Assembly (NCBI RefSeq): GCF_963921235.1
Contig: NC_086108.1
Location: forward strand, 33,978,001-34,042,000
DNA length: 64,000 nucleotides
Direction of reading: 5' to 3'
Source: Mobula hypostoma
Lineage: Eukaryota
Shown: piece after piece, positions 2,672 through 56,677 of the stretch
Numbering within the stretch: the stretch's first letter is position 1
How the letters are laid out: each line of letters starts with the position of its first letter
Notes under the pieces: generated by a model
The model's database searches: none
What the model saw: only the letters and a program-made list of their open reading frames with translations
What the model was told of the DNA's origin: nothing
Program-made: the position numbers and the translations under genes

Positions 2672-3357
2672 GATGGAGAAGATGGCGGCGCGACGGCAGC
2701 GTGTGCGGCCTCTCCGCTGATGAATATCTGTTATCTGTCAAGTAGGGGACCGTGCACAATTCTGACTTGATGGAGACAGACACGGGTGCATAGTGGAACA
2801 TCTGGAAAACTTCTGAAATGACTGCTTCGCTGTTGCTGCTACTGTGTGGTAACCGGAATCGCTGGAGCTGAAGGCCTCGAAATCCTTGGGTTTGTGTGTG
2901 TCAGCGGCCGGGGAGAAGTCGAAGGCGCTCGGTGGAGGATGGGGCTCGGGAGGCTGTATCGGAGAGGCTGCTCAGAAGCTCGGAGTTTTCGGACGGATGG
3001 ACTCAGGGTCGGCTGGGGTTGGCTGCTTCCAAGGCATCGGCAAGTTGACGGTGCCTGGAGGTTTATGGCAGGGAGTTTCTCCCTTTTGCCACCACTATCA
3101 GGAACTCGGGAGTCGTTGACTCGGGGACTTTGAGACTTTTTTTTACTGTGCCTATGGACTGTTCTTCATCAAATTATGGTATTGCTTTGCACTGCTGTAA
3201 CTGTATGTTATAATTATGTGGTTCTGTCAGTGTTAGTCTTTGGTCTGTCTTGTTTTCTGTGATATCACTCCGGAGAAACATTGCATCATTTCTTAATGCA
3301 TATATGCACTTCTAAATGACAATACTAGAGGACTGAGTGTTCTCATAATCATAATCT
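2672..3357 (+). mobile_element. Non-autonomous LINE-derived retroposon (GC-rich AAGATGGCG head, Rex/L2-like 3' tail)
   Basis: Starts gagaagatggcggcg, has a CpG-rich body and no RT homology; its AT-rich tail ends in short (ataatc) repeats. Confidence 0.55.
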
Positions 3358-4462
3358 ACTACAATACCTTATCACATCGGTCACTAATCAAAGTAAGGCT
3401 TAAACCTTTCCAACATTGTTCTCCTGACATAAAATCTAAGATCATTAAAAATAAAGTTGTTACAAGTAAATAGTAGGTGATCAGTACATGGCATTCAGAA
3501 TATGGTTAGAATCTATTTTATCGCAAAGGTATCTCAGTTTTTGCTTGTTTAGTCTTCTGTGGGTTCCTTGATCATTAAATAAATATTTCTTCCATGCTTT
3601 TTATTTGGTATGATGCAATTCTGCATTCAGTATGGTTAGAAATCAAGTACAGCTTCCTCCTGGTACTTATATGTCTTAAGTTAATTTGAGAAGAGAAAAT
3701 CCTACATCACTTGTGGAATATTCCATACTTTTTTCTAGTCTTGCTGGAAGTTGGTGTGCAATTAATATTAATATACTCAAAAGCAAAAAAAGTATTCTAT
3801 GATCAGTCTAATTACTGTAAGCAAGATGATTACCCTTGGTGCCCAAGCAGCTAATAAATATTAATATTTTTATTCCATATAAATCTAGATTCCAGCTATA
3901 AAACATGAATTTTATGATCTTTTGCACACCTATTTTCAACAGTATGTCATCTACAATATTATTCAAAACTATGTCAGGGTCTGAATTAAAGTAGCATTAT
4001 TTTTCAAAATGAGTATTGTGCATTTTAAAACATAATCTGATTCTGTTATTAAAATATAAAACAGTAAGTTCTGACAGTAATCTAGTATAATATGTGACTG
4101 CACCTTGAGGCTTTTACAGAAATGCACAAAGGCATAATTTGCACCAGATTGATGCATAATTCCTCATCAGTTTGAACGTAAATATATCTTATGGTGTGAT
4201 GACAGAATCAATAAGAGAATGCAGTAATTGTAGTTTAACACTAGACAACGCGGTGACCCGTTGGGGCATCCTTTGAGAGAAGGGTAGTGCAGTCTGATGT
4301 GACCAGAATGAAGACTAAATTTTCCTGAATGCTATTGGTATCACTTTGCTTTGGAAACTGAAGTAGAAAACCTCAGTCTATTAAAGAAGAACGACGCATA
4401 GCAAAGCAAATATAGATCCTCCTCGTTTAATGAAGGACACTTTTGATGACATCATTTCTGGT

Positions 4463-4849: not shown

Positions 4850-5472
4850 TCATCTCTTGACCATAATGTCCCCCTTCCCTTTCCACGCGGCATAATTAGG
4901 CAGACCTTTTTTTTTTACCCTAATGCTGGATAGAAGATACGAAGCAGTAACACCAAAGGATGCTGATTATTCTTGATGATGTGGTTGGTGCTCTCCTAAA
5001 TGGACGTGATATAGTCACCGCTGTCCTTTGACTGCAGCAAAGGGTTTTATGGGTGTCTTGAAGTACGTCATTACAATAAGATTTAACTATCTCTTATTGA
5101 TGGGTGGCCATTAGATCTGTCCCAATCTTGCACATGCTGATGGTGATTAGCAGAATGTGACCCCTCAAAATAGAACTGCCCTGCCTTTTTGCTGCGGTAC
5201 GTGTCGTTGATGAGGCTGGCTGTGTGCATGTGTTGGGCTGTGGCGTCCCAATTTCCATGATAGCAGATCATCTCTTGGGTGAAAGTGAGCCCGTTGATTT
5301 TGGCAAATGAGCAATTTTATATGAATACGTAACCCTGAACTTGGCCTGCATTCTGTAAGTTAGCGCATTTTAATTCGATTTAGCCAAAAAAAGTGCCACT
5401 GTAATGCACTGTTTGCACAAATTGGAGGTCAGAAACAGACAGACAGAGCATGAGAGTTTTAGTAGTATATAG

Positions 5473-6330
5473 TGTTACGTACCCCGTAACTGGGTTGCCA
5501 AACCAGCAGAAATGGATCACTCAGTTGGAGTCTGGAGTACTAGAACTAAGAAAGTTTTATTAAAGAAACAAGCAACACAGTAATCGAAAGGATAATAAAT
5601 GCAACAATTCAACAATGATAACCACACATGTGCACAGAATTAAGATAACAGCATCAATCAAGCTCTATCGTTGTCTAGGGGTAAATGACCAATTTCAAAA
5701 TGACTCAAAGTTCAGTCCAGTTTGTAGTTCAGTTCGCAGTAATCGTTGTCATGGCGATGGACAAGGTGGGGAAGAGAGACATAGAATAGGAACAACTCAT
5801 CATTCAGCACAGCTTCACTCACAGACCAGCGAGATGGCTCACAAACAGCATTTGGGCGGGTCCTTGGTGATGTCACCTGAGGTCACCGACTGTGACCCCT
5901 CCTCCAGATGCGGTCGATCCTCTGCAGTGAACCCGGCACCCAGGCAAGGGCGGACACACACCGGGTTCCCGCTGATCGTACCTTTCCACCCTGGTCGTTG
6001 TCTGGCACTTCTCACCCACTCGTGAGAAGCGTACCGCTTCCAGGGTCTCGTTACCTCGGGTGGCGTGTGTGTCTGTCTTAGCGAACCTGTCCCTTTTTAT
6101 CCCCCTGCTGGGGTATCGCCTGTCCATCACTTCAAACAGTTCAGGGTTCAAAGGGGGGAGCCGCTCCAGACAGCTTTCTCTCCCACATCCCTTCATTACA
6201 CATCTCCAGACGCTGCTCCATTGTTCCTTATCTCTCCTTCCCCTGAGGGCAGGTGGCAGACCAACTGCTGATGCCACTGATGCTAGCCCAGGCCAGCAAA
6301 CATCTTAATTTTATGTGTATTCTCGTAACA
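5473..6330 (-). repeat. 3' LTR (858 bp)
   Basis: tgttacg...cgtaaca termini; AATAAA on the minus strand at ~5556-5561. Confidence 0.95.
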
Positions 6331-6342
6331 CTTCCCCCCTTT
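6331..6342 (-). other. Polypurine tract
   Basis: AAAGGGGGGAAG on the minus strand, abutting the 3' LTR. Confidence 0.9.
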
Positions 6343-6585
6343 AAGGATTTTTACCGGGAGGTAAAAATTACAAACATGACTACATTATCTGATACATACA
6401 CAATATACATCTTTAACAGTTATTTAGCTAATACAGAGAATTTGAAGCTGTCAACACCTTGACAGACAGTCATCACATTTTCTGTTCCTTTTACACGTGT
6501 TATTAATAATCCCTTAGACCAGGCTCCAACTCAGCAAACTTCATAGTGGCCAAAAACACTGATGAATTGCGACCAATGTAACCTC

Positions 6586-9465
6586 TCATTTGGTTTTTTG
6601 TCCCGGACCACAACAACAAGGGTCGTCCCATTCCGACTCAGTTTTCTCTCGCAGGGGCTTAGTAGGAGGGGGACGGGTATTGACCGCAGAGTTATTGCAA
6701 AACTTCCTGCAGTACCCCACCATCTCCAAAAGCCTTCTGAGGGCCCTCTTGTCTGTCGGGGTTGGGAGGTCAGCGATAGCCTGCACTGTAGCTTGCATCA
6801 CTGCCAGCTGCCCCTGTGTCACCACAATTCCCAGGTAAGTGACATTCGTGTGGCCGAATTCATTTTTTCCAAGGCTCACTATCACGCTGGCTTCAGACAG
6901 CCGTATTAAATTGCCAATACACACCTCTGTGTTCATCAGCCCTTTAGTCACTGAATTACTCGAAAAATATGGGTGTTGTTTGCTTGGCTGCCCTATTGTA
7001 ACCACAATCACCCAACGTCCCAGTTCTTTGCATTTCCTCGGGGCAATCAAACACATGGGTGCGAGTCGTTTAATTACTCCTTCGGGGATTAAGGGAGAGA
7101 CCTTATCAGTAGACCTGGCCAAAAGAATAGCCTTCTCCCATCTGACCGATCCCATCCTAATCTTTTCAAAATGGTTTTTTCCTCTTAGCAGGGGGCCCCT
7201 AGCTTCATTGATTTCCACGCTAACACCGACTAGGTTTGTTAGCATATCAAAAGCCGGTGACCGTCTCAGTTCGCGTCGGTCATGATCAATAACATTCTTC
7301 CCCCTGGGCAGCCGGTAAATCTCTTTCATGATTCCACCAACTGTTTCCCCCAGCACCGCAAAATGTCCACCGGGGGGTACCTCGTGGGCCATGTTAAAAA
7401 CCTCATCCCCATAACTCTCTTGCACCACCCCCCACTCCTCATCTGCGGATACTGTCCTTGATTTCCCTTTCTTCCTTAGCACTTCCTCATCCGCACAATA
7501 GCTTGTCAAGGCTGTGTCAGAGAGAGCGGTCTCGGCAAAAACCATCAGCCCCTCGTCTCGCTCTTGCGTCTGCACAAATTCTTTCCTGGCTACTGCTACG
7601 TCCGTCCCAGCTCCCTCACTACCTCTTATCTCACTACACCCTGTCTCATACAAGGTTGGCAGAAATGTTTCAGCCAAATTCACCATCGCGGGCGGGGCCT
7701 CCATGCTGGCAGGCTGACCCGTCAATCTCACGACTGGGAACACGATTCCTCCGGCGATGTCATTACCGAGCAAGACTTCCACGTCTTTCATCGGTAATTC
7801 GGACCTCACCCCGATCGTGACTAGTCCAGAGACCAGGTTGCTCTGTAAATGTATCTGGTGCAAAGGGACTGACTCTGTCCCTTCCCCAACACCTTTGACC
7901 TCTACCTCCCCAGTCTGGGTCTCTGAGCTAAACTCTAATACACTCTTCAGTATTAGTGACTGACACGCTCCCGTGTCTCTCCAGATCCGCACTGGAACTG
8001 GTTTTAACCTCTTTTTCACTGACACCAGTCCGGCCGAGATAAACCTCTCGCGCCCTTCCTGGACTTTTTCAGACCTGTCCTTCCCTAGCGGTTCACTTAA
8101 CAGCTCGATACAGCCATTCAAAATTTCCGCTTTTCCTTTCCCCGTCTCCTTCCTTGGGGCAAAGCACCTGGACGCAAAGTGTCCGACTTTCCCACAATTA
8201 TAACAGACGACCCCAGGAGACTTCCTACCAGACTGCTCCCGGTCTACCTTATCCTTTTCACTAGTCCCCGGCTTACTTTCTGACTTTTCCGGCGGACTCT
8301 CCCCGCCGTCCTGACTACCCTTCTGGTAGCCTTTACTCGGGGCAACCTTCATTTTATGCGTCAACGCATACTCATCCGCTAACTTAGCAGTTGCGGCTAA
8401 CGTGGCTGCCTCTTTCTCATCGAGGTAGGGTCTCATACCCTCAGGGACACAACCTTTAAACTGCTCAATCAGAATCAGCTGCAGCAGTCTGTCATAATCC
8501 CCCTCTACCCGCTTCGAGGCGCACCAACGCTCACAATATGTTTGCATCTCGCGAGCAAACTCCAAATACGTGCGGTCCCACCGCTTCCTCGCATTCCGGA
8601 ACCTCTGCCGGTATGCCTCCGGGACCAACTCATAAATCCTGAGGATGGCCTCCTTCACCACCTCATACTTCTGGGCATCTTCCGCGGATAAAGCGGAGTA
8701 AGCTTGTTGGGCCTTCCCTTTCAGTACACTCTGAAGTAAGACAACCCACTTATCCCTCGGCCATTCCTGACTTATGGCCACTTTTTCGAAATGGAGAAAG
8801 TACCGATCCACATCGGTATCGTCAAATGGGGGAACCAGCCTAACCTCCTGGGTCGCCCGGAACCCTCCACCTTGGTTCGGCACGAGCCCCTGCTCGGCCC
8901 TTATCTTTAACTTCTCCAGCTCAAATTCCCTTTCCCTCTGTTTCTCCTCTCTCTCCAACTGTCTGTCCCTCTCTCTCTCTTCTCTCTCCAACTGTCTGTC
9001 CCTCTCTCTCTCTTCTCTCTCCAACTGTCTTTCTCTCTCTTGCCTTTCTACCTCTTTCTCTCTCTCCCGCCTTTCTAACTCTCTCTCTTTCTCCTGCCTT
9101 TCTAACTCTCTCTCTTTCTCCTGCCTTTCTAACTCTCTCTCTTTCTCCTGCCTTTCTAACTCTCTCTCTTTCTCCTGCCTTTCTAACTGCCGTACCCGGA
9201 ACTCGTGCTCGAGTCTCAGTTTTTCAAGCTGTACCTGTACCGCGTCTCCAGCAGGTTTTTCAATAGACACCTCCCCCAGCTCACCTTGGGGAAACACACC
9301 TTTAGATACATAGTGCTCTACAATAGCTCTGTGTATCTCCTCTCTCCTCATTGTCGACTTCACCTTAGCAAGATTCACCCGTTTTGCCACAGCTATCAAT
9401 TCCGATTTCCTGGCATCCTCTAATGCCTCCAAGGTCGGCGCCTTTATAAATTCCTCAACCTCCAT
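6586..9465 (-). CDS. 959-aa SCAN-Gag-CCHC-aspartic protease fused to integrase and RT relics
   Basis: SCAN-like segment (YELVPEAYRQRFR...LILIEQFKGCVP), CYNCGKVGHFASRC knuckle, RDTGA and LLGND protease motifs, AHEVPPGGHF integrase zinc-finger half, KQHPY, TYLG and GYCRKF RT remnants. Confidence 0.9.
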   Translation of the reverse strand: MEVEEFIKAPTLEALEDARKSELIAVAKRVNLAKVKSTMRREEIHRAIVEHYVSKGVFPQGELGEVSIEKPAGDAVQVQLEKLRLEHEFRVRQLERQEKERELERQEKERELERQEKERELERQEKERELERREREKEVERQERERQLEREERERDRQLEREERERDRQLEREEKQREREFELEKLKIRAEQGLVPNQGGGFRATQEVRLVPPFDDTDVDRYFLHFEKVAISQEWPRDKWVVLLQSVLKGKAQQAYSALSAEDAQKYEVVKEAILRIYELVPEAYRQRFRNARKRWDRTYLEFAREMQTYCERWCASKRVEGDYDRLLQLILIEQFKGCVPEGMRPYLDEKEAATLAATAKLADEYALTHKMKVAPSKGYQKGSQDGGESPPEKSESKPGTSEKDKVDREQSGRKSPGVVCYNCGKVGHFASRCFAPRKETGKGKAEILNGCIELLSEPLGKDRSEKVQEGRERFISAGLVSVKKRLKPVPVRIWRDTGACQSLILKSVLEFSSETQTGEVEVKGVGEGTESVPLHQIHLQSNLVSGLVTIGVRSELPMKDVEVLLGNDIAGGIVFPVVRLTGQPASMEAPPAMVNLAETFLPTLYETGCSEIRGSEGAGTDVAVARKEFVQTQERDEGLMVFAETALSDTALTSYCADEEVLRKKGKSRTVSADEEWGVVQESYGDEVFNMAHEVPPGGHFAVLGETVGGIMKEIYRLPRGKNVIDHDRRELRRSPAFDMLTNLVGVSVEINEARGPLLRGKNHFEKIRMGSVRWEKAILLARSTDKVSPLIPEGVIKRLAPMCLIAPRKCKELGRWVIVVTIGQPSKQHPYFSSNSVTKGLMNTEVCIGNLIRLSEASVIVSLGKNEFGHTNVTYLGIVVTQGQLAVMQATVQAIADLPTPTDKRALRRLLEMVGYCRKFCNNSAVNTRPPPTKPLREKTESEWDDPCCCGPGQKTK

Positions 9466-9541
9466 TTCCGCTGTTTGTCTTTTCTTTCTTTTGGGAATTT
9501 TAACCCAATCAATTTACTCCGTCCCAAATTTAGCGTTCAAA

Positions 9542-9559
9542 ATCCCGGACGAGCCCCCA
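9542..9559 (-). other. Primer binding site, tRNA-Pro
   Basis: TGGGGGCTCGTCCGGGAT, 4 nt from the 5' LTR. Confidence 0.95.
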
Positions 9560-9563
9560 CTTA

Positions 9564-10303
9564 TGTTACGTACCCCGTAACTGGGTTGCCAAACCAGCAG
9601 AAATGGATCACTCAGTTGGAGTCTGGAGTACTAGAACTAAGAAAGTTTTATTAAAGAAACAAGCAACACAGTAATCGAAAGGATAATAAATGCAACAATT
9701 CAACAATGATAACCACACATGTGCACAGAATTAAGATAACAGCATCAATCAAGCTCTATCGTTGTCTAGGGGTAAATGACCAATTTCAAAATGACTCAAA
9801 GTTCAGTCCAGTTTGTAGTTCAGTTCGCAGTAATCCTTGGTGATGTCACCTGAGGTCACCGACTGTGACCCCTCCTCCAGATGCGGTCGATCCTCTGCAG
9901 TGAACCCGGCACCCAGGCAAGGGCGGACACACACCGGGTTCCCGCTGATCGTACCTTTCCACCCTGGTCGTTGTCTGGCACTTCTCACCCACTCGTGAGA
10001 AGCGTACCGCTTCCAGGGTCTCGTTACCTCGGGTGGCGTGTGTGTCTGTCTTAGCGAACCTGTCCCTTTTTATCCCCCTGCTGGGGTATCGCCTGTCCAT
10101 CACTTCAAACAGTTCAGGGTTCAAAGGGGGGAGCCGCTCCAGACAGCTTTCTCTCCCACATCCCTTCATTACACATCTCCAGACGCTGCTCCATTGTTCC
10201 TTATCTCTCCTTCCCCTGAGGGCAGGTGGCAGACCAACTGCTGATGCCACTGATGCTAGCCCAGGCCAGCAAACATCTTAATTTTATGTGTATTCTCGTA
10301 ACA
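9564..10303 (-). repeat. 5' LTR (740 bp, 118-bp deletion relative to the 3' LTR)
   Basis: Matches 5473-6330 by eye except for loss of 5745-5862; the ORF track gives identical translations in both copies. Confidence 0.95.
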
Positions 10304-10602
10304 ATAGGTAGATGAAGATATTCTCACTTTAAAACTCTAAAAATATCTTAAAATAAGTTTCAAGATCATCCTTGATGCCATAATAGCACTTCAAATATAA
10401 TTTTGATTAACTTTTAGTTTTTTTTCTTATTTCAGTACCACTTGGCCATTGATCACTATTTCATACTACTATGAGTCGTTGAAGGCTTCCATTGAGTTGG
10501 GAAGCCTTTGTTACTTTCATTATTGTAGAGATATGGGAAAGTACATACTTAAATGCAGATATGCAATGCAGAAGAAAAAAAACCTAGCTAATACAAGACA
10601 AT

Positions 10603-11700: not shown

Positions 11701-12035
11701 GTCAAAGAACATTTAAGGATGTTAAGGATGTTAACATTTAAGGAGGCTAAGGATTTCCAGCGAGAAGACATTTTATTTCTCGGAGTAGGAGAGAAGCCAG
11801 ACTGCGCAGGCGCGTGACGTCAGCCAGTTGAGCGCGAACAGTTTAAAAAGAAAACCGTCATAATCCAGCGGGCAGCGTCGGAGCGGGCTGCGAGTGAGAA
11901 GATGCAGAGTGAAAGGGCTTTGTCTCAACAGGCTTCAGCGGAGATGGGAAGAGGCTTTCTGCGAGCGTTGAATCTCATAGTAACGGAGTGAGTTACAGTT
12001 TTTTGGTATTTAGTGCAAACAGTAGCATTAGAGGT

Positions 12036-12893
12036 ATGCAACTAGGATTAGTGTTGTGCTTGGAGTGCCAGATGTGGGGACCCTGGGAGACTCCCAGCCT
12101 CCCCAAGGATTACATCTGCACCAGGTGCACTGAGATGAGGCTCCCGAAGGACCTTGTTAAGGAGCTGGAGATGGAAATTGATGACCTTCGGCTAATTAGG
12201 GAAAGTGAGGAGGTGATAGATACTACCTATAGAGAGGTAGTGGATAGCACCCCTGTGACAGTCCCCCTTAGAAATCGATATATCGTTTTGGATACTGTTG
12301 AAGAGGCAGACCTGACAAAGGAGGACCACAGTGAACGAGACTCTGGCATTCTGCCCAGTGTCGAAATCAAGAGAGCAAGAAGAAATGCGGTAGTTATAGG
12401 GGATTCCATCGTAAGGGGGACGGACAAGAGATTCTGCGAGCCGGACAAGGATACCCGGATGGTGTGTTGCCTCCCTGGTGTCCAGGTACGGGATGTCTCA
12501 GATCGAGTCCAGAGTATTCTGAGGAGAGAGGGCGAGCAGCCGGAAGTCTTGGTACATGTTGGTACCAATGACATAGACAGAAAAAGAGAGGAGGTCCTGA
12601 AGAAAGATTACTGGGAGCTAGGAAGAAAACCGAAAAGCCGGACCTCCAGAGTAATAATATCAGGATTGCTGCTTGAGCTGCGCGCTAATGATGGTAAGAA
12701 TAGCAGAATCAAGCAGATGAATGTGTGGCTAAGTAACTGGTGCAGGGGGCAGGGCTTCAAATTCTTGAATCATTGGGATCTATTTTGGGGAAGGTATGAC
12801 TTATACAAAAAAGATGGATTACACCTGAACTCAAAAGGTACTAATATCCTGGCGGGATTGTTTAATATATCTGTTAGGGAGGGTTTAAACTAA
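12036..12893 (+). CDS. CR1 ORF1: zinc finger/leucine zipper plus SGNH/GDSL esterase domain
   Basis: CLECQMW..CTRC, coiled coil, GDSIVRG, VHVGTND and DGLHL motifs; first ATG at 12036. Confidence 0.88.
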   Translation: MQLGLVLCLECQMWGPWETPSLPKDYICTRCTEMRLPKDLVKELEMEIDDLRLIRESEEVIDTTYREVVDSTPVTVPLRNRYIVLDTVEEADLTKEDHSERDSGILPSVEIKRARRNAVVIGDSIVRGTDKRFCEPDKDTRMVCCLPGVQVRDVSDRVQSILRREGEQPEVLVHVGTNDIDRKREEVLKKDYWELGRKPKSRTSRVIISGLLLELRANDGKNSRIKQMNVWLSNWCRGQGFKFLNHWDLFWGRYDLYKKDGLHLNSKGTNILAGLFNISVREGLN

Positions 12894-12994
12894 GTTGGCA
12901 AGGGGAAGGAAACCAAGGTGTTAGGGTCGAGGAAGAGGAAAATAGAAGTAAGTCAAAAATACCGTGCAGCAAAGATGGCAAGAAGGACAGGCTG

Positions 12995-15798
12995 GTGAAT
13001 ATACAGGATAATTTGCTGCAAAATAGAAATATAGCAAAATCGGCAACAGATACTGATCTAACTGTACTGTACTTAAATGCATGCAGCATTAGAAATAAAG
13101 TGGATGACCTTGCTGCACAGCTGCAGGTTAAAAGGTATGACATTGTGGCCATCACCGAGTCATGGCTAAATGATGGATGTGATTGGGAGCTGAATATCCA
13201 AGGATACACAGTGTATAGGAAGGATAAGAAGGTAGGTAAAGCGGGTGGCGTGGCCCTGATGGTAAGTAACGATATCAAATCAATAGAAAGAAGGGACATA
13301 GGATCAGAAGAGGTAGAATCCTTATGGGTAGAATTAAGAAATGGCAAGGGTAAAAAGACACTAATAGCAGTTATATACAGGCCTCCAAACAGCAGCTGGG
13401 ATGTGGACTACAAGTTGCAGCTGGAAATAGAAAAAGTGTGTCAGAAGGAAAATGTCAAGATAATTATGGGGGATTTTAATATGAAAGTGGATTGGGAAAG
13501 TCAGGAGGGTAATGGATCTCAGGAGAGAGAGTTTGTAGAATGCCTACAGGATGGCTTTTTGGAGCAGCTTGTCCAGAAGCCCACCAGGGGACCGGCTGTT
13601 TTGGATTGGGTGCTGTGTAGCGAACCTGAGGCGATTAGGGAGCCGGAGGTAAAGGAACCCCTTGGAAGTAGCGATCATAATATGATTGAGTTCAGTTTCA
13701 AATTTGAAAAGGAGAAGCTGGTATCAGGTGTATCGATATTTCAGTGGAACAGGGGAAATTACAGTGGTATGAGAGAGGAACTGGCCCAAGTCGATTGGAA
13801 AAGTAAGCTAAATGGAGGGATGCCAGAGCAGAATTGGATGAAATTCCTACAAGAAATAAGGAAAATGCAGGAAAAATATATTCCAAGAAAAAAGAAAATC
13901 ATGAATGGAAAAATGGCACAAATATGGCTAACGAGAGAGGTTAAGGCAAAAATAAAAGCAAAAGAAATGGCGTACAAGGAAGCAAAAATTAGTGGGAAAA
14001 ATGAGGACTGGAAGACTTTTAAAAACTTACAGAAGGAAACTAAGGAAGTCGTTAGGAAAGAAAAGATGAATTATGAAAGGAAGTTGGCGATTAACATAAA
14101 AAAGGATACTAAGAGTTTTTTTAAATATATGAAGAGTAAAAGAGTGACAAGGGTAGATATTGGACCGATTGAAAATGATGCTGGAGAAATTATAATGGAT
14201 AACAAAGAGATGGCGGAGGAACTGAATGAGTATTTTGCATCAGTCTTCACAGTGGAAGACATGAGCAATATACCTGATAGCCAGAGGTATCAGGGAATAG
14301 AAGTAGGTACAGTCAAGATAACCAGAGAGAAAGTGCTTGGGAAGCTAAGTGGACTAAGAATAGATAAGTCTCCTGGTTCGGATGTGGTGCACCCAAGGGT
14401 TCTGAAGGAGGTGGCTTTGGAGATTGTGGAAGCATTGGAAATGATCTTCCAGGAATCAATAGACTCTGGCATGGTTCCGGAGGACTGGAAGGTCGCAAAT
14501 GTAGTTCCGCTATTTAAGAAAGGAAGGAGGCAGCAAAAAGAAAATTACAGACCTATTAATACCTCGAGGTGCATGACAAGATAGGCCAAAGCCAGCATGG
14601 TTTCATGAAGGGAAGATCCTGCCTCACCAATCTATTGGAATTTTTTGAGGTAATCTCGAATAAGATTGACAAGAGAGAGGCTGTGGATGTTGTGTATTTG
14701 GATTTTCAAAAGGCCTTCGATAAGGTGCCGCATAAGAGGCTACTTAATAAGATGAGAGCCCATGGAATTATAGGAAAGATATTGGAATGGGTGGAGCATT
14801 GATTGATAGGCAGAAAGCAAAGGGTGGGAATAAAGGGATCTTATTCTGATTGGTTGCCGGTTACTAGTAGTGTTCCGCAGGGGTCGGTGTTGGGGCCGCT
14901 TCTTTTTACGATGTATATCGATGATTTGGATTATGGATTAAATGGTTTTGTGGCTAAGTTTGCGGATGACACCAAGATAGGTGGAGGAGCAGGAAGTGTT
15001 GAAGAAACGGAAAGGTTGCAGAGAGACTTGGTCGGTTTAGGAGAGTGGGCAAAGAAATGGCAGATGAGATACAACGTTGACAAATGTACGGTTGTGCATT
15101 TTGGAAGAAGAAATAATTGGGCAGATTATTATTTAGATGGGGAGAAAATTCAAAAATCGGAAGTGCAATGGGACTTGGGAGTCCTCGTGCAGGATACCCT
15201 AAAGGTTAACCACCAAGTTGGATCGGCGGTAAGGAAAGCGAATGCTATGTTGACATTCATTTCAAGAGGAATAGTGTATAAGAGTAAGGAGGTGTTGATG
15301 AGGCTCTATGGCGCATTAATGAGATCTCATTTGGAATACGGTGTGCAGTTTTGGGCCCCCTATCTTAGAAAGGATATACTGATGTTGGAGAGAGTTCAGA
15401 GAAGATTTACGAGGATGATTCCTGGAATGCAGGGGCTAACATATGAGGAGCGTTTGTCGGCTCTTGGACTGTATTCATTAGAGTATAGAAGAATGAGAGG
15501 GGATCTCATAGAAACATTTCGAATGTAGAAAGGGTTGGACAGAGTAGATGTAGAAAGGCTGTTTCCCTTGGTGGGAGAGTCCAGGACAAGAGGCTACAGT
15601 CTTAGAATTAGAGGGTACCCAGTTAAAACAGAGATGAGGAGAAATTTTTTTAGCCAGAGAGTCGTGGATTTGTGGAATTCGTTGCCACATACAGCTGTGG
15701 AGGCCCGATCATTGACAGTGTTTAAGGAGGAGATTGACAGGTATCTAATTAGTCAGGGTATCAAGGGATATAGGGAAAAAGCCGGAAGTTGGAACTAA
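12995..15798 (+). pseudogene. CR1 ORF2 (APE endonuclease + RT), disrupted
   Basis: YLNA, ITESW, MGDFN, SDH, YLDFQKAFDKV, PQGSVLGP and FADD motifs; deletion/frameshift at ~14560; stops at 14800 and 15526. Confidence 0.92.
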
Positions 15799-53215: not shown

Positions 53216-54213
53216 ATGATTTGAAGGAGACAATAAGGATAATTTAAACACAACTGATTTTATAAGATGTGGCTACCCTCTAGGTTCAGGTAACCCCTGA
53301 CAGTTGCACAATAGATTCTTAATAACTTGACAGTTACAGCAAAATAAAGCAATTATCAAGGCTGTAGATTCTCCTTTGAACTAAGAAAAAAAATCATACT
53401 GCCCTTCCCCAACTGGCCTGAGCAACAAACTTCAGCTCTTCTCTCTTCTCCTGTCCTGTCTCGTATCTGTGTCAGCAGTTAGACTCAAGATTTAAGGTTA
53501 TGAATTCATTACTGAATTACATTCCAGTTGCTCAAAAGGAACATTCATTTATTACAATGAGTTACACCTCATTTCTATAAGATTTCAGCTGAAAAGAGCA
53601 AACACTTTAAAAATCTCCTAGTATCATTCCTGTTCAAATTATTGGCATATGTATACGGAGAATTCATTTAATCATCTAAGTGTTTCTAATAGATTCTGAA
53701 ATTTTAGTTTATTTGTATTTGTGCAGAACTCAAAGGGTCCTGAATATTATAGCTCAATAGAGTGTCAAAACTCATCAAGCGACAGAAAAGAAGAGGTTAA
53801 GCTAGCCAGTTATATGCCCATCTCCCACTATCTTTTACTCTTTCTCTTTCTCTTCAGCATCCTAATTACTTATAGAAAATTATTTCAATATCCGAGTTTA
53901 AGTTACTTACTGATAACCACTTCAGCAGGAGGGGCCTAAATTCTTAAGTTTACCTGCTTCCTAAAGCCAGCCTGCTGCTGGAAATACATCGTGATTCTAG
54001 TTGGAACTCCTTCTAGCTTGGAGGACTATAAAAGTGACAGAGCCTAGAGGAGGCTTAGATGCCTGGTTGACTGACACTAAACTGGAGCTTTGGCTACAGG
54101 TGGGAAGTAAGATACCATCCCCAATACTCATTAGTGGAGATGGACTAGGAATTCCCAAAAGCCTGGTGGTGTGTGCATTTCTTCAAGGAGGGTTGGAGTG
54201 TTTTTGTGAACCT

Positions 54214-56677
54214 TACCAAATTGGTAAAGGTGCTGAGGAAGAGGATTTCTTGGAATGTATGCGGGATGGTTTTTTGAACCAACATGTCGAGGAACCAACT
54301 AGAGAGCAGGCTATTCTGGACTGGGTTTTGAGCAATGAGGAAGGGTTAATTAGCGATCTTGTCGTGAGAGGCCCCTTGGGTAAGAGTGACCATAATATGG
54401 TGGAATTCTTCATTAATATGGAGAGTGACATAGTTAATTCAGAAACAAAGGTTCTGAACTTAAAGAGGGGTAACTTTGAAGGTATGAGACGTGAATTAGC
54501 TAAGATAGACTGGCAAATGACACTTAAAGGATTGACGGTGGATATGCAATGGCAAGCATTTAAAGGTTGCATGGATGAACTACAACAATTGTTCATCCCA
54601 GTTTGGCAAAAGAATAAATCAAGGAAGGTAGTGCACCCGTGGCTGACAAGAGAAATTAGGGATAGTATCAATTCCAAAGAAGTAGCATACAAATTAGCCA
54701 GAGAAAGTGGCTCACCTGAGGACTGGGAGAAATTCAGAGTTCAGCAGAGGAGGGCAAAGGGCTTAATTAGGAAGGGGAAAAAAGATTATGAGAGAAAACT
54801 GGCGGGGAACATAAAAACGGACTGTAAAAGCTTTTATAGATATGTAAAAAGGAAAAGACTGGTAAAGACAGATGTAGGTCCCCTGCAGACAGAAACAGGT
54901 GAATTGATTATGGGGAGCAAGGACATGGCAGACCAATTGAATAATTACTTTGGTTCTGTCTTCACTAAGGAGGACATAAATAAACTTCCAGAAATAGTAA
55001 GGGACAGAGGGTCCAGTGAGATGGAGGAACTGAGTGAAATACATGTTAGTAGGGAAGTGGTGTTAGGTAAATTGAAGGGATTGAAGGCAGATAAATCCCC
55101 AGGGCCAGATGGTCTGCATCCTAGAGTGCTTAAGGAAGTAGCCCAAGAAATTGTGGATGCATTAGTGATAATTTTTCAAAACTCGTTAGATTCTGGACTG
55201 GTTCCTGAGGATTGGAGGGTGGCTAATGTAACCCCACTTTTTAAAAAAGGAGGGAGAGAGAAACCGGCGAATTATAGACCGGTTAGCCTAACGTCGGTGG
55301 TGGGGAAACTGCTGGAGTCAGTTATCAAGGATGTGATAACAGCACATTTGGAAAGCGGTGAAATGATCGGACAAAGTCAGCAAGGATTTGTGAAAGGAAA
55401 ATCATGTCTGACGAATCTCATAGAATTTTTTGAGGATGTAACTAGTAGAGTGGATAGGGGAGAACCAGTGGATGTGGTATATTTGGATTTTCAAAAGGTT
55501 TTTGACAAGGTCCCACACAGGAGATTAGTGTGCAAACTTAAAGCACACGGTATTGGGGGTAAGGTATTGGTGTGGGTGGAGAATTGGTTAGCAGACAGGA
55601 AGCAAAGAGTGGGAATAAACGGGACCTTTTCAGAATGGCAGGCGGTGACTAGTGGGGTACCGCAAGGCTCAGTGCTGGGACCCCAGTTGTTTACAATATA
55701 TATTAATGACTTGGATGAGGGAATTAAATGCAGCATCTCCAAGTTTGCGGATGACACGAAGCTGGGTGGCAGTGTTAGCAGTGAGGAGGATGCTAAGAGG
55801 ATGCAGGGTGACTTGGATAGGTTGGGTGAGTGGGCAAACTCATGGCAGATGCAATTTAATGTGGATAAATGTGAAGTTATCCACTTTGGTGGCAAAAATA
55901 GGAAAACAGATTATTATCTGAATGGTGGCCGATTAGGAAAAGGGGAGGTGCAACGAGACCTGGGTGTCATTATATACCAGTCATCGAAAGTGGGCATGCA
56001 GGTACAGCAGGCGGTGAAAAAGGCGAATGGTATGCTGGCATTTATAGCGAGAGACTTCGAGTACAGGAGCAGGGAGGTACTACTGCAGTTGTACAAGGCC
56101 TTGGTGAGACCACACCTGGAGTATTGTGTGCAGTTTTGGTCCCCTAATCTGAGGAAAGACATCTTTGCCATAGAGGGAGTACAAAGAAGGTTCACCAGAT
56201 TGATTCCTGGGATGGCAGGACTTTCATATGAAGAAAGACTGGATGAACTGGGCTTGTACTCGTTGGAATTTAGAAGATTGAGGGGGGATCTGATTGAAAC
56301 GTATAAGATCCTAAAGGGATTGGACAGGCTAGATGCAGGATGATTGTTCCCGATGTTGGGGAAGTCCAGAACGAGGGGTCACAGTTTGAGGATAGAGGAG
56401 AAGCCTTTTAGGACCGAGATTAGGAAAAATTTCTTCACACAGAGAGTGGTGAATCCGTGGAATTCTCTGCCACGGCAAACTGTTGAGGCCAGTTCATTGG
56501 CTATGTTTAAGAGGGAGTTAGATATGGCCCTTGTGGCTACGGGGGTCAGGGGGTATGGAGGGAAGGCCGGGGCGGGGTTCTGAGTTGGATGATCAGCCAT
56601 GATCATAATAAATGGCGGTGCAGGCTCGAAGGGCCGAATGGCCTACTCCTGCACCTATTTTCTATGTTTCTATGTTT
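54214..56677 (+). mobile_element. Young 5'-truncated CR1 (end of APE + RT)
   Basis: Continuous ORF2 with a single stop at 56341; (CTATGTTT)n tail. Confidence 0.95.

Follow-up and report, generated by a model that had tools for sequence, protein, structure and literature searches.

The element and its family

The window analysed here, a stretch of 64,000 nucleotides (nt) of Mobula hypostoma contig NC_086108.1 (positions 33,978,001 to 34,042,000), carries an internally deleted retrotransposon with long terminal repeats (LTRs), 4,831 nt in length and bounded by TG...CA termini, at positions 5473-10303 of the minus strand. This element and its copies are called here the satellite, and the autonomous element with the same LTR that was found in the same genome is called its partner or helper. 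By domain order and the presence of SCAN, both are placed among the Gmr1-like elements. The features of the copy in the window are the following, in window positions, with RT, IN and PR standing for reverse transcriptase, integrase and protease and ORF for open reading frame.

5469..5472, no strand: target-site duplication (TSD), left copy, 4 bp, sequence identical to 10304-10307
5473..6330, minus: 3' LTR, 858 nt, the family LTR in common with the autonomous partner
6331..6342, minus: polypurine tract (PPT), differing from the partner's only in run length
6451..6502, minus: last piece of RNase H (KGTENV / DCLSR), which the family neither keeps in frame nor translates
6503..6615, minus: RNase H relic that follows an in-frame loss of 258 nt; most young copies have it in frame, while the window copy reads it out of frame
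6586..9465, minus: 959-amino acid (aa) ORF, Gag-SCAN-CCHC-protease with fused pol relics, starting with ATG
6616..6960, minus: RT relic, codons 836-950, with 384-nt and 54-nt in-frame deletions, the C-terminal part remaining
6961..7245, minus: relic of the IN-RT linker (codons 741-835), with both the core and the C-terminal domain of integrase lost
7229..7254, minus: junction of the large integrase deletion, family-specific, which served as copy-number probe
7246..7677, minus: relic of the PR-IN linker and of the integrase N-terminus (codons 597-740), HH retained and CxxC lost, several small in-frame deletions
7696..8034, minus: protease of the aspartic type (codons 478-590), its catalytic Asp encoded at 7975-7977, a satellite-specific lineage under purifying selection
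8164..8208, minus: CCHC zinc knuckle, residues 420-434 (PF00098, E 4.7e-6)
8341..8883, minus: capsid region including SCAN, a pool in common with the partner (trees, column counts)
8353-8622, minus: SCAN, residues 282-371 (PF02023, E 1.1e-12)
8933..9188, minus: E/R/K-rich 27/33-nt tandem repeat in gag, unit number variable, length variants mostly in frame
9542..9559, minus: primer-binding site (PBS), 18 nt, 4 nt from the LTR
9564..10303, minus: 5' LTR, 740 nt, with a private 118-nt deletion
10304..10307, no strand: TSD, right copy, a perfect 4-bp duplication

The initial annotation, made from the sequence alone, had described an uninterrupted 959-aa ORF with intact Gag, SCAN, CCHC knuckle and protease, an integrase reduced to HH without CxxC or DDE core, an RT that jumps from KQHPY to NSVTKGL and has CIGN in place of YIDD, and perfect PBS, PPT and TSD. 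All of this was borne out: SCAN and CCHC were recognised by Pfam, the protease has DTG and a retropepsin-like fold, and the integrase and RT losses were seen in the alignment to the intact partner. Since Pfam gave no protease match in either satellite or helper, this domain was examined by its predicted fold, which has a mean predicted local distance difference test score of 79, contains DTG and matches retroviral and related aspartic proteases (best E 8e-4). Each Cys of the knuckle is retained in 78 of 80 copies and the His in 79 of 80, while the catalytic Asp is present in all 78 copies covering that position; RT relic residues 853-936 gave a weak match to solved RTs. The satellite has in this way an intact Gag-protease ORF without a working RT or integrase, as do semi-autonomous elements of the Sabrina_SA/WHAM type.

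The stop at codon 959 results from a frameshift near 6590-6597 that is private to the window copy. In most young copies the family ORF is of approximately 986 aa, reads through the RNase H remnant and stops at 6503-6505, that is, 172 nt before the 3' LTR and within approximately 50 nt of the helper's stop, which lies 120 nt from its LTR. Of the RNase H tail initially read as out of frame, only the last KGTENV/DCLSR remnant is so in the family, whereas the preceding relic is in frame. The LTRs, described as nearly identical, have 0 mismatches over 740 columns, but 118 nt at about 5743-5860 of the 3' LTR have no counterpart in the 5' LTR. An AATAAA is found near LTR position 772 (copy L002). The PBS is presumably of the tRNA-Pro type; no tRNA was detected in the window by ARAGORN.

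A 26-nt word across the integrase-deletion junction had 1,887 exact matches in the genome (its reversed control had 0) and was absent from all 30 partner loci, while a conserved word of the partner integrase had 164, about one tenth of the satellite count. A word of the LTR had 12,762 exact matches, which we infer to be mostly solo LTRs. All these counts are exact-match lower bounds. The best 40 genome matches to the element are all full length, with 97-100% identity, and among the 30 nearest copies fetched all have two LTRs, 29 a perfect TSD and 27 a frame of 975 codons or more; leaving aside the window copy, the 29 that remain measure 4,902-4,992 nt. The deleted form has thus itself been replicating, as the initial annotation proposed, and its junction and its open frame are found in many copies. 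A second sample, less dependent on the query than the nearest copies, was picked by position (the first 60 of 100 junction matches listed, all on one contig), and 10 incomplete copies were left out. Among the 50 complete ones, 44 have a TSD and the median LTR divergence is 1.1%, with 6 copies at zero and 14 at 2.5% or more. The frame is open in 16 of 25 copies with LTR divergence below 1% and in 3 of the 25 older copies, which is what one would expect of copies that insert with an open frame and lose it later. With respect to age, the element had been called young; the family is not, because divergence of satellite LTR pairs reaches 8.7% (range 0-8.7%) and the relic is 14-26% different from every partner copy.

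Among annotated proteins the nearest belong to Mobula hypostoma, with identity of up to 97%, and a protein search with the relic only found the fused form in only 5 of 13 matches, all named Mobula hypostoma. In addition, contigs from two runs of one study, with a second organism label, span RT, RNase H and one integrase junction, which suggests that the deletion form is older than a species split. Three NCBI models matching the element ORF (P0001, P0008 and P0134) are named MACC1, PISD and UBE2G2 isoform X1, and are probably mis-annotations or chimeric transcripts.

The autonomous partner and the mosaic ancestry of the satellite

The helper supposed by the initial annotation exists in the same genome, with the same LTR and PBS. 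A search with the integrase core yielded elements with this LTR and complete IN, RT and RNase H motifs, and in one of them (L061) Pfam recognised Integrase_H2C2 (702-758), rve (779-874), RVT_1 (1191-1348) and RNase H (1437-1543). The domain order of the partner is PR-IN-RT-RNase H, with which the satellite relics are colinear, and the nearest full polyproteins carry SCAN, IN and RT domains. Both LTRs could be resolved in 17 of the 30 partner loci fetched, and 4 of these 17 have an unbroken frame of 1,551-1,580 codons. Two partner elements (L065/L066, G000:C80, at about 24.469-24.482 Mb) are in tandem, with the middle LTR in common, forming a three-LTR array.

In gag, satellite and partner are 96-100% identical; the region around the protease gives 87-95%, the relic 73-83% and the 3' end 87-100%. 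The PBS has two alleles, each present in both satellite and partner, a pattern that possibly reflects repeated correction by the tRNA primer; the commoner allele (31 of 50 copies) is not the one of the window (9542-9563). The partner has LTR divergences of 0-3.8%, the satellite mostly of 0-3.9%, and the partner capsid nearest to a satellite copy is in most cases about as old as that copy. The two elements have in this manner the same PBS, identical LTR termini with a conserved LTR, and overlapping activity times, which are the features by which such pairs are recognised in one report (PMC11302176).

The relationship changes along the element. In young copies (24 satellite, 8 helper), the distance between groups equals the diversity within them across the LTR, the 5' untranslated region (UTR) and gag to about codon 408, rises to 0.06-0.33 over the protease and relic, and drops again at the 3' end; for the LTR, diversity is 0.021 in the satellite, 0.025 in the helper and 0.024 between them. 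Trees, from which rows with more than 10-20% gaps in the region were omitted, gave the same picture. The capsid tree (49 satellite and 20 helper rows) has 17 changes of label, versus 17.6 when labels were shuffled, and forms a ladder by age; in the LTR tree satellite and helper are intermingled (15 changes versus 14.5). The RT-relic tree (51 satellite and 30 helper rows), in contrast, has a single label change, versus 24 shuffled, with support of 100/100, and single changes were also found for the IN relic and for the C-terminal half of the protease (support 95). No fixed difference between satellite and helper was found in gag, and all 23 of the old-to-young gag substitutions of the satellite equal the letter of the young helper. 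The LTR, PBS alleles and gag are therefore one pool, and protease and relic a separate satellite clade.

The synonymous distance between satellite and helper, about 0.3-0.8 in the longer segments, is similar to that of the most distant helper subfamilies. Taken with the trees and the distances, the sharing of gag and PBS indicates that the deletion form arose once, long ago, and has continued to exchange LTR and gag. A known route for such exchange is template switching between co-packaged RNAs (PMC6894440). Satellite and helper RNA would be packaged together, and switching during reverse transcription would homogenise the LTR, the 5' UTR and gag to approximately codon 410-440. The spacer between knuckle and protease (codons ~437-465) contrasts sharply between satellite (L002) and helper (L061-L066); gag exchange ends here on the 3' side, and a protease cleavage site may lie within this spacer. 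It must be considered that, gag being a pool in common with the helper, its conservation cannot be assigned to the satellite alone.

Selection on the reading frame and on the proteins

Net indels were counted in one pairwise DNA alignment of satellite and partner. From the protease to codon 974 all 13 are in frame (chance 6e-7 at one in three), comprising losses of 63, 21, 12, 15, 51, ~940, 18, 384, 54 and 258 nt and three gains of 3 nt, while from codon 974 on they measure 14, 1, 1, 6 and 4 nt and most shift the frame. Outgroup proteins place the deletions on the satellite side, and some of the deleted pieces are still present in older satellite copies. Among copies, shared indels in the relic occupy 9 sites, 6 in frame and 3 being single-base homopolymer insertions (2 copies each); at sites of at least 3 nt, 6 of 6 shared and 6 of 20 private indels are in frame, and 8 of 10 shared indel entries in the UTRs are not multiples of three. 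Stops in the relic number 3 to 87 synonymous variants when shared and 13 to 86 when private (p 0.018), and none is fixed, versus approximately 6.5-8 expected among the lineage replacements (P 3e-4 to 1.5e-3). These counts support selection on the relic frame, with frameshifts and stops being purged, and agree with the initial annotation in this regard. Its explanation, that the frame is kept for the sake of Gag-PR, does not hold, given that a stop right after PR would yield the same proteins; the open tail needs another cause.

The same indels would have no selective meaning if deletions in reverse transcription preferred multiples of three and a few master copies had escaped stops by chance. 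Shared indels are born in replication and private ones in the host, so that private indels are an imperfect control, and a few shared stops do exist. Nevertheless, the shared indels in the UTRs and beyond codon 974 are mostly out of frame, the expected stops were not fixed and a second family shows the same pattern, so this explanation is largely refuted and retains in our judgement a very small probability.

Selection on amino acids was estimated in 80 copies, with variants in at least 5 copies taken as shared and private variants as neutral baseline. The ratio of replacement to synonymous polymorphism (pN/pS) is 0.20 for shared and 0.58 for private variants in gag plus PR, and 0.69 and 0.70, respectively, in the relic (p 4e-5 between regions; p 1.0 for relic shared versus private). 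The separate estimates advised by the initial annotation thus differ between gag-PR and pol relic, and the relic, being at its neutral baseline, drifts freely in its amino acids. This bears on whether the tail has gained a function as protein (a spacer, or a localisation or degradation signal), the product and not its translation being selected. The frame has been held across 14-26% divergence, and the C-terminal RT piece has a pairwise ratio of replacement to synonymous distance (dN/dS) to the helper of 0.43-0.48, as such a function would lead one to expect. Pairwise dN/dS, however, takes in the constrained helper branch, the satellite-only old-to-young changes in the relic are 12 synonymous and 38 replacement, and the deletions went on accumulating stepwise; together with the neutral pN/pS, this makes a functional tail improbable.

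A second family bears on the cause of the open frame. In the first protein search, stingray proteins appeared in which Gag-protease is fused to a degenerate gag/protease piece, and through this piece another deletion family of Gmr1 origin, the older of the two, was found in the same genome (family B; loci L217-L220 and L229-L252, e.g., L220:4160-7432), with its own LTR and the same PBS type in a further variant; a related protein piece has at least 150 genome matches. Three copies, selected because their frames were long, have 995-1,110 uninterrupted codons, although they lack the greater part of the capsid as well as the knuckle, the protease site, the integrase core and the N-terminus of RT. 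Counted in 22 copies (8 of 30 loci, being partial, were left out), private indels are in frame in 43 cases and not in 86, and shared ones in 11 and 3, two of these 3 being mutually compensating. Stops number 45 per 366 synonymous variants among singletons and 4 per 125 among variants of at least 3 copies. Since this frame was retained without Gag or protease function, translation itself seems to be the selected trait. Six proteins named Hemitrygon or Hypanus (P0018, P0020, P0037, P0064, P0072 and P0012) have, at protein level only, an in-frame fusion to a degenerate second gag/protease piece like that of family B, and these stingray fusions are possibly a third semi-autonomous design.

If only the act of translation matters, the satellite could be a pure passenger whose gag and protease stay intact through re-import from the helper. 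The absence of fixed gag differences and the 23 of 23 gag changes that match the helper fit such a passenger, as does family B, which replicated with capsid, knuckle and protease site destroyed. The protease does not fit: its C-terminal half is a satellite clade, at a synonymous distance (dS) of 0.49 and a replacement distance (dN) of 0.05 from the helper, its fixed differences are 8 synonymous and 3 replacement (38 and 88 in the relic; p 0.007), its pN/pS is 0.22-0.36 for shared and 0.58-0.64 for private variants, and its Asp is invariant. These data support purifying selection on the satellite's own protease and leave the passenger as an unlikely, although not negligible, alternative. Selection for its own capsid and protease, as initially suggested, is in this way upheld for the protease, but the conservation of gag is not creditable to the satellite alone.

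Several observations weigh against a frame held by selection and against a satellite that depends on its own proteins. Both samples lean towards young copies, being drawn from nearest matches or from exact word matches on one contig. Large gaps were fragmented in the pairwise alignment, and a few of the 13 indels could be compensating pairs. One stop, at codon 826, is common to 4 older copies and two others occur in 2 copies each, so the constraint on the frame is not absolute; in family B several stops recur in 3-4 copies, and its RT and RNase H parts are constrained (0.33-0.36), hence an imperfect null. With regard to the proteins, the protease counts are small, its satellite-only old-to-young changes are 3 synonymous and 4 replacement, and the conservation of gag may be wholly imported from the helper. 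Variants confined to the satellite look neutral (capsid 4 synonymous and 9 replacement, protease 3 and 10) in one test, which splits variants by presence in the helper and is biased against synonymous variants (the relic moves from 0.42 to 0.77); because of this bias it was replaced by group-wise column counts.

On balance, we consider it probable that the satellite is an old, still-spreading Gmr1-like deletion derivative with LTR and gag in common with a helper about 10 times rarer, that it likely borrows RT and integrase and likely makes its own Gag and PR, and that its dead pol is probably open because the RNA needs translation to near the normal stop for survival and packaging. Its RNA would give a polyprotein of Gag, PR and junk, from which the protease would free capsid and nucleocapsid, cutting Gag from the junk tail; the particles would also take in helper polyprotein, with its RT and integrase. 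A long untranslated tail is expected to trigger nonsense-mediated decay, and the need for an open frame could come from escape from this decay or from packaging in cis.

It is possible, with much less confidence, that we are dealing with a two-part vertebrate retrotransposon in which the satellite, about 10 times commoner, supplies most of the capsid and protease, with a single co-evolved capsid gene and approximately 390 junk codons held open by selection on translation, an arrangement that would have arisen independently in the second family. In this regard, gag and pol lie in a single frame in the helper, which hence has no obvious means of making excess Gag. If this were true, "translate to the end or die" would be a general rule for such elements.

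The initial annotation had also seen here a possible intermediate toward host domestication of SCAN/Gag, and NCBI gene models do present several copies as genes, some with host gene names. The copies number approximately 2,000, are dispersed and carry LTRs and TSDs, and in 6 of 50 the two LTRs are identical, all of which speaks of a high-copy, recently inserting element; selection acts on the replicating lineages, private changes after insertion are neutral, and the window copy has its own frameshift and LTR deletion. A domesticated gag/SCAN gene is ruled out by the 1,887 matches, LTRs, TSDs and neutral private changes, and an intermediate toward one is hardly credible. According to a recent report, host SCAN has a single origin in the amniote lineage (bioRxiv 10.1101/2025.03.03.638093).

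Comparison with known systems and other repeats of the window

Semi-autonomous elements that encode Gag and protease, and LTRs in common with a helper, are already known in wheat, and an in-frame fusion is known in mouse. Like the satellite, mouse IAP 1Δ1 is non-autonomous and internally deleted, with an in-frame gag-pol fusion and proteins needed in trans; its fusion is reported to act in cis, and it out-transposes its helper (PMC6466679; PMC7411935). It is a Class II endogenous retrovirus with one 1.9-kb deletion that takes parts of gag and pol, unlike the satellite, in which gag and protease are complete and about 13 in-frame indels have accumulated step by step in a neutrally evolving relic. 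From the purged stops and frameshifts we infer that cis translation of the satellite fusion may be needed for mobility, as in IAP 1Δ1.

The wheat elements RLG_Sabrina_SA, RLG_WHAM (with RLG_Wilma) and RLG_Quinta (with RLG_Cereba) likewise have an autonomous partner with PBS and LTR ends in common, by which they are mobilised, encode Gag-protease or Gag plus an unknown domain without RT or integrase, and have been proposed as suppliers of extra Gag (PMC9744471; PMC11302176). They differ in belonging to plant lineages and in that RT and integrase are absent rather than kept as in-frame relics; moreover, Quinta gag has hardly any DNA homology to Cereba, whereas satellite gag is one recombining pool with its helper. 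In non-autonomous RLC_Angela the internal region is monophyletic and the LTRs cluster with the contemporary autonomous partner (PMC9744471), as in the satellite, but the coding regions of its derivatives are full of frameshifts and stops, in contrast to the open frame of the satellite, in which gag belongs to the swapped block. TR-GAG elements are also non-autonomous LTR elements with a single ORF including gag (PMC4350172); they are shorter than 4 kb and nothing in them resembles protease, integrase, RT or RNase H, while the satellite family is of about 4.9-5.0 kb with protease and pol relics. Membership in TR-GAG is excluded by the length of the window copy and by these protease and pol relics. 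Gmr1-like elements themselves have SCAN followed by PR, IN and RT-RNase H (bioRxiv 10.1101/2025.03.03.638093), from which the satellite differs by deletion of the integrase core and of the greater part of both RT and RNase H.

Our literature search, which did not extend to Repbase/Dfam, found no such family described in cartilaginous fishes, and no vertebrate Gmr1 case, shared gag pool, or neutral relic with a purged frame in two families. The two independent families constitute a natural experiment in which selection on the frame is separable from selection on the protein, and the need for cis translation, known from one mouse element, becomes open to study by population data. In genomes of this kind, a long open ORF should not be taken as evidence for protein function or domestication. 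The recombination boundary is sharp, with LTR and capsid in common and protease and pol not, which extends LTR swapping to a structural gene. LTR swapping has reportedly been described in soybean as well, going by the title of a 2010 paper by Du et al.

The window contains other repeats. Broken LINE copies with endonuclease/RT frames, ordinary in this genome, lie at 11913-15528, with an esterase-like ORF1, and at 54001-56343; we take both to be of the CR1/L2 type. A repeat at 2704-3430, very abundant in four sequencing runs, adjoins a 167-aa frame at 2038-2541.

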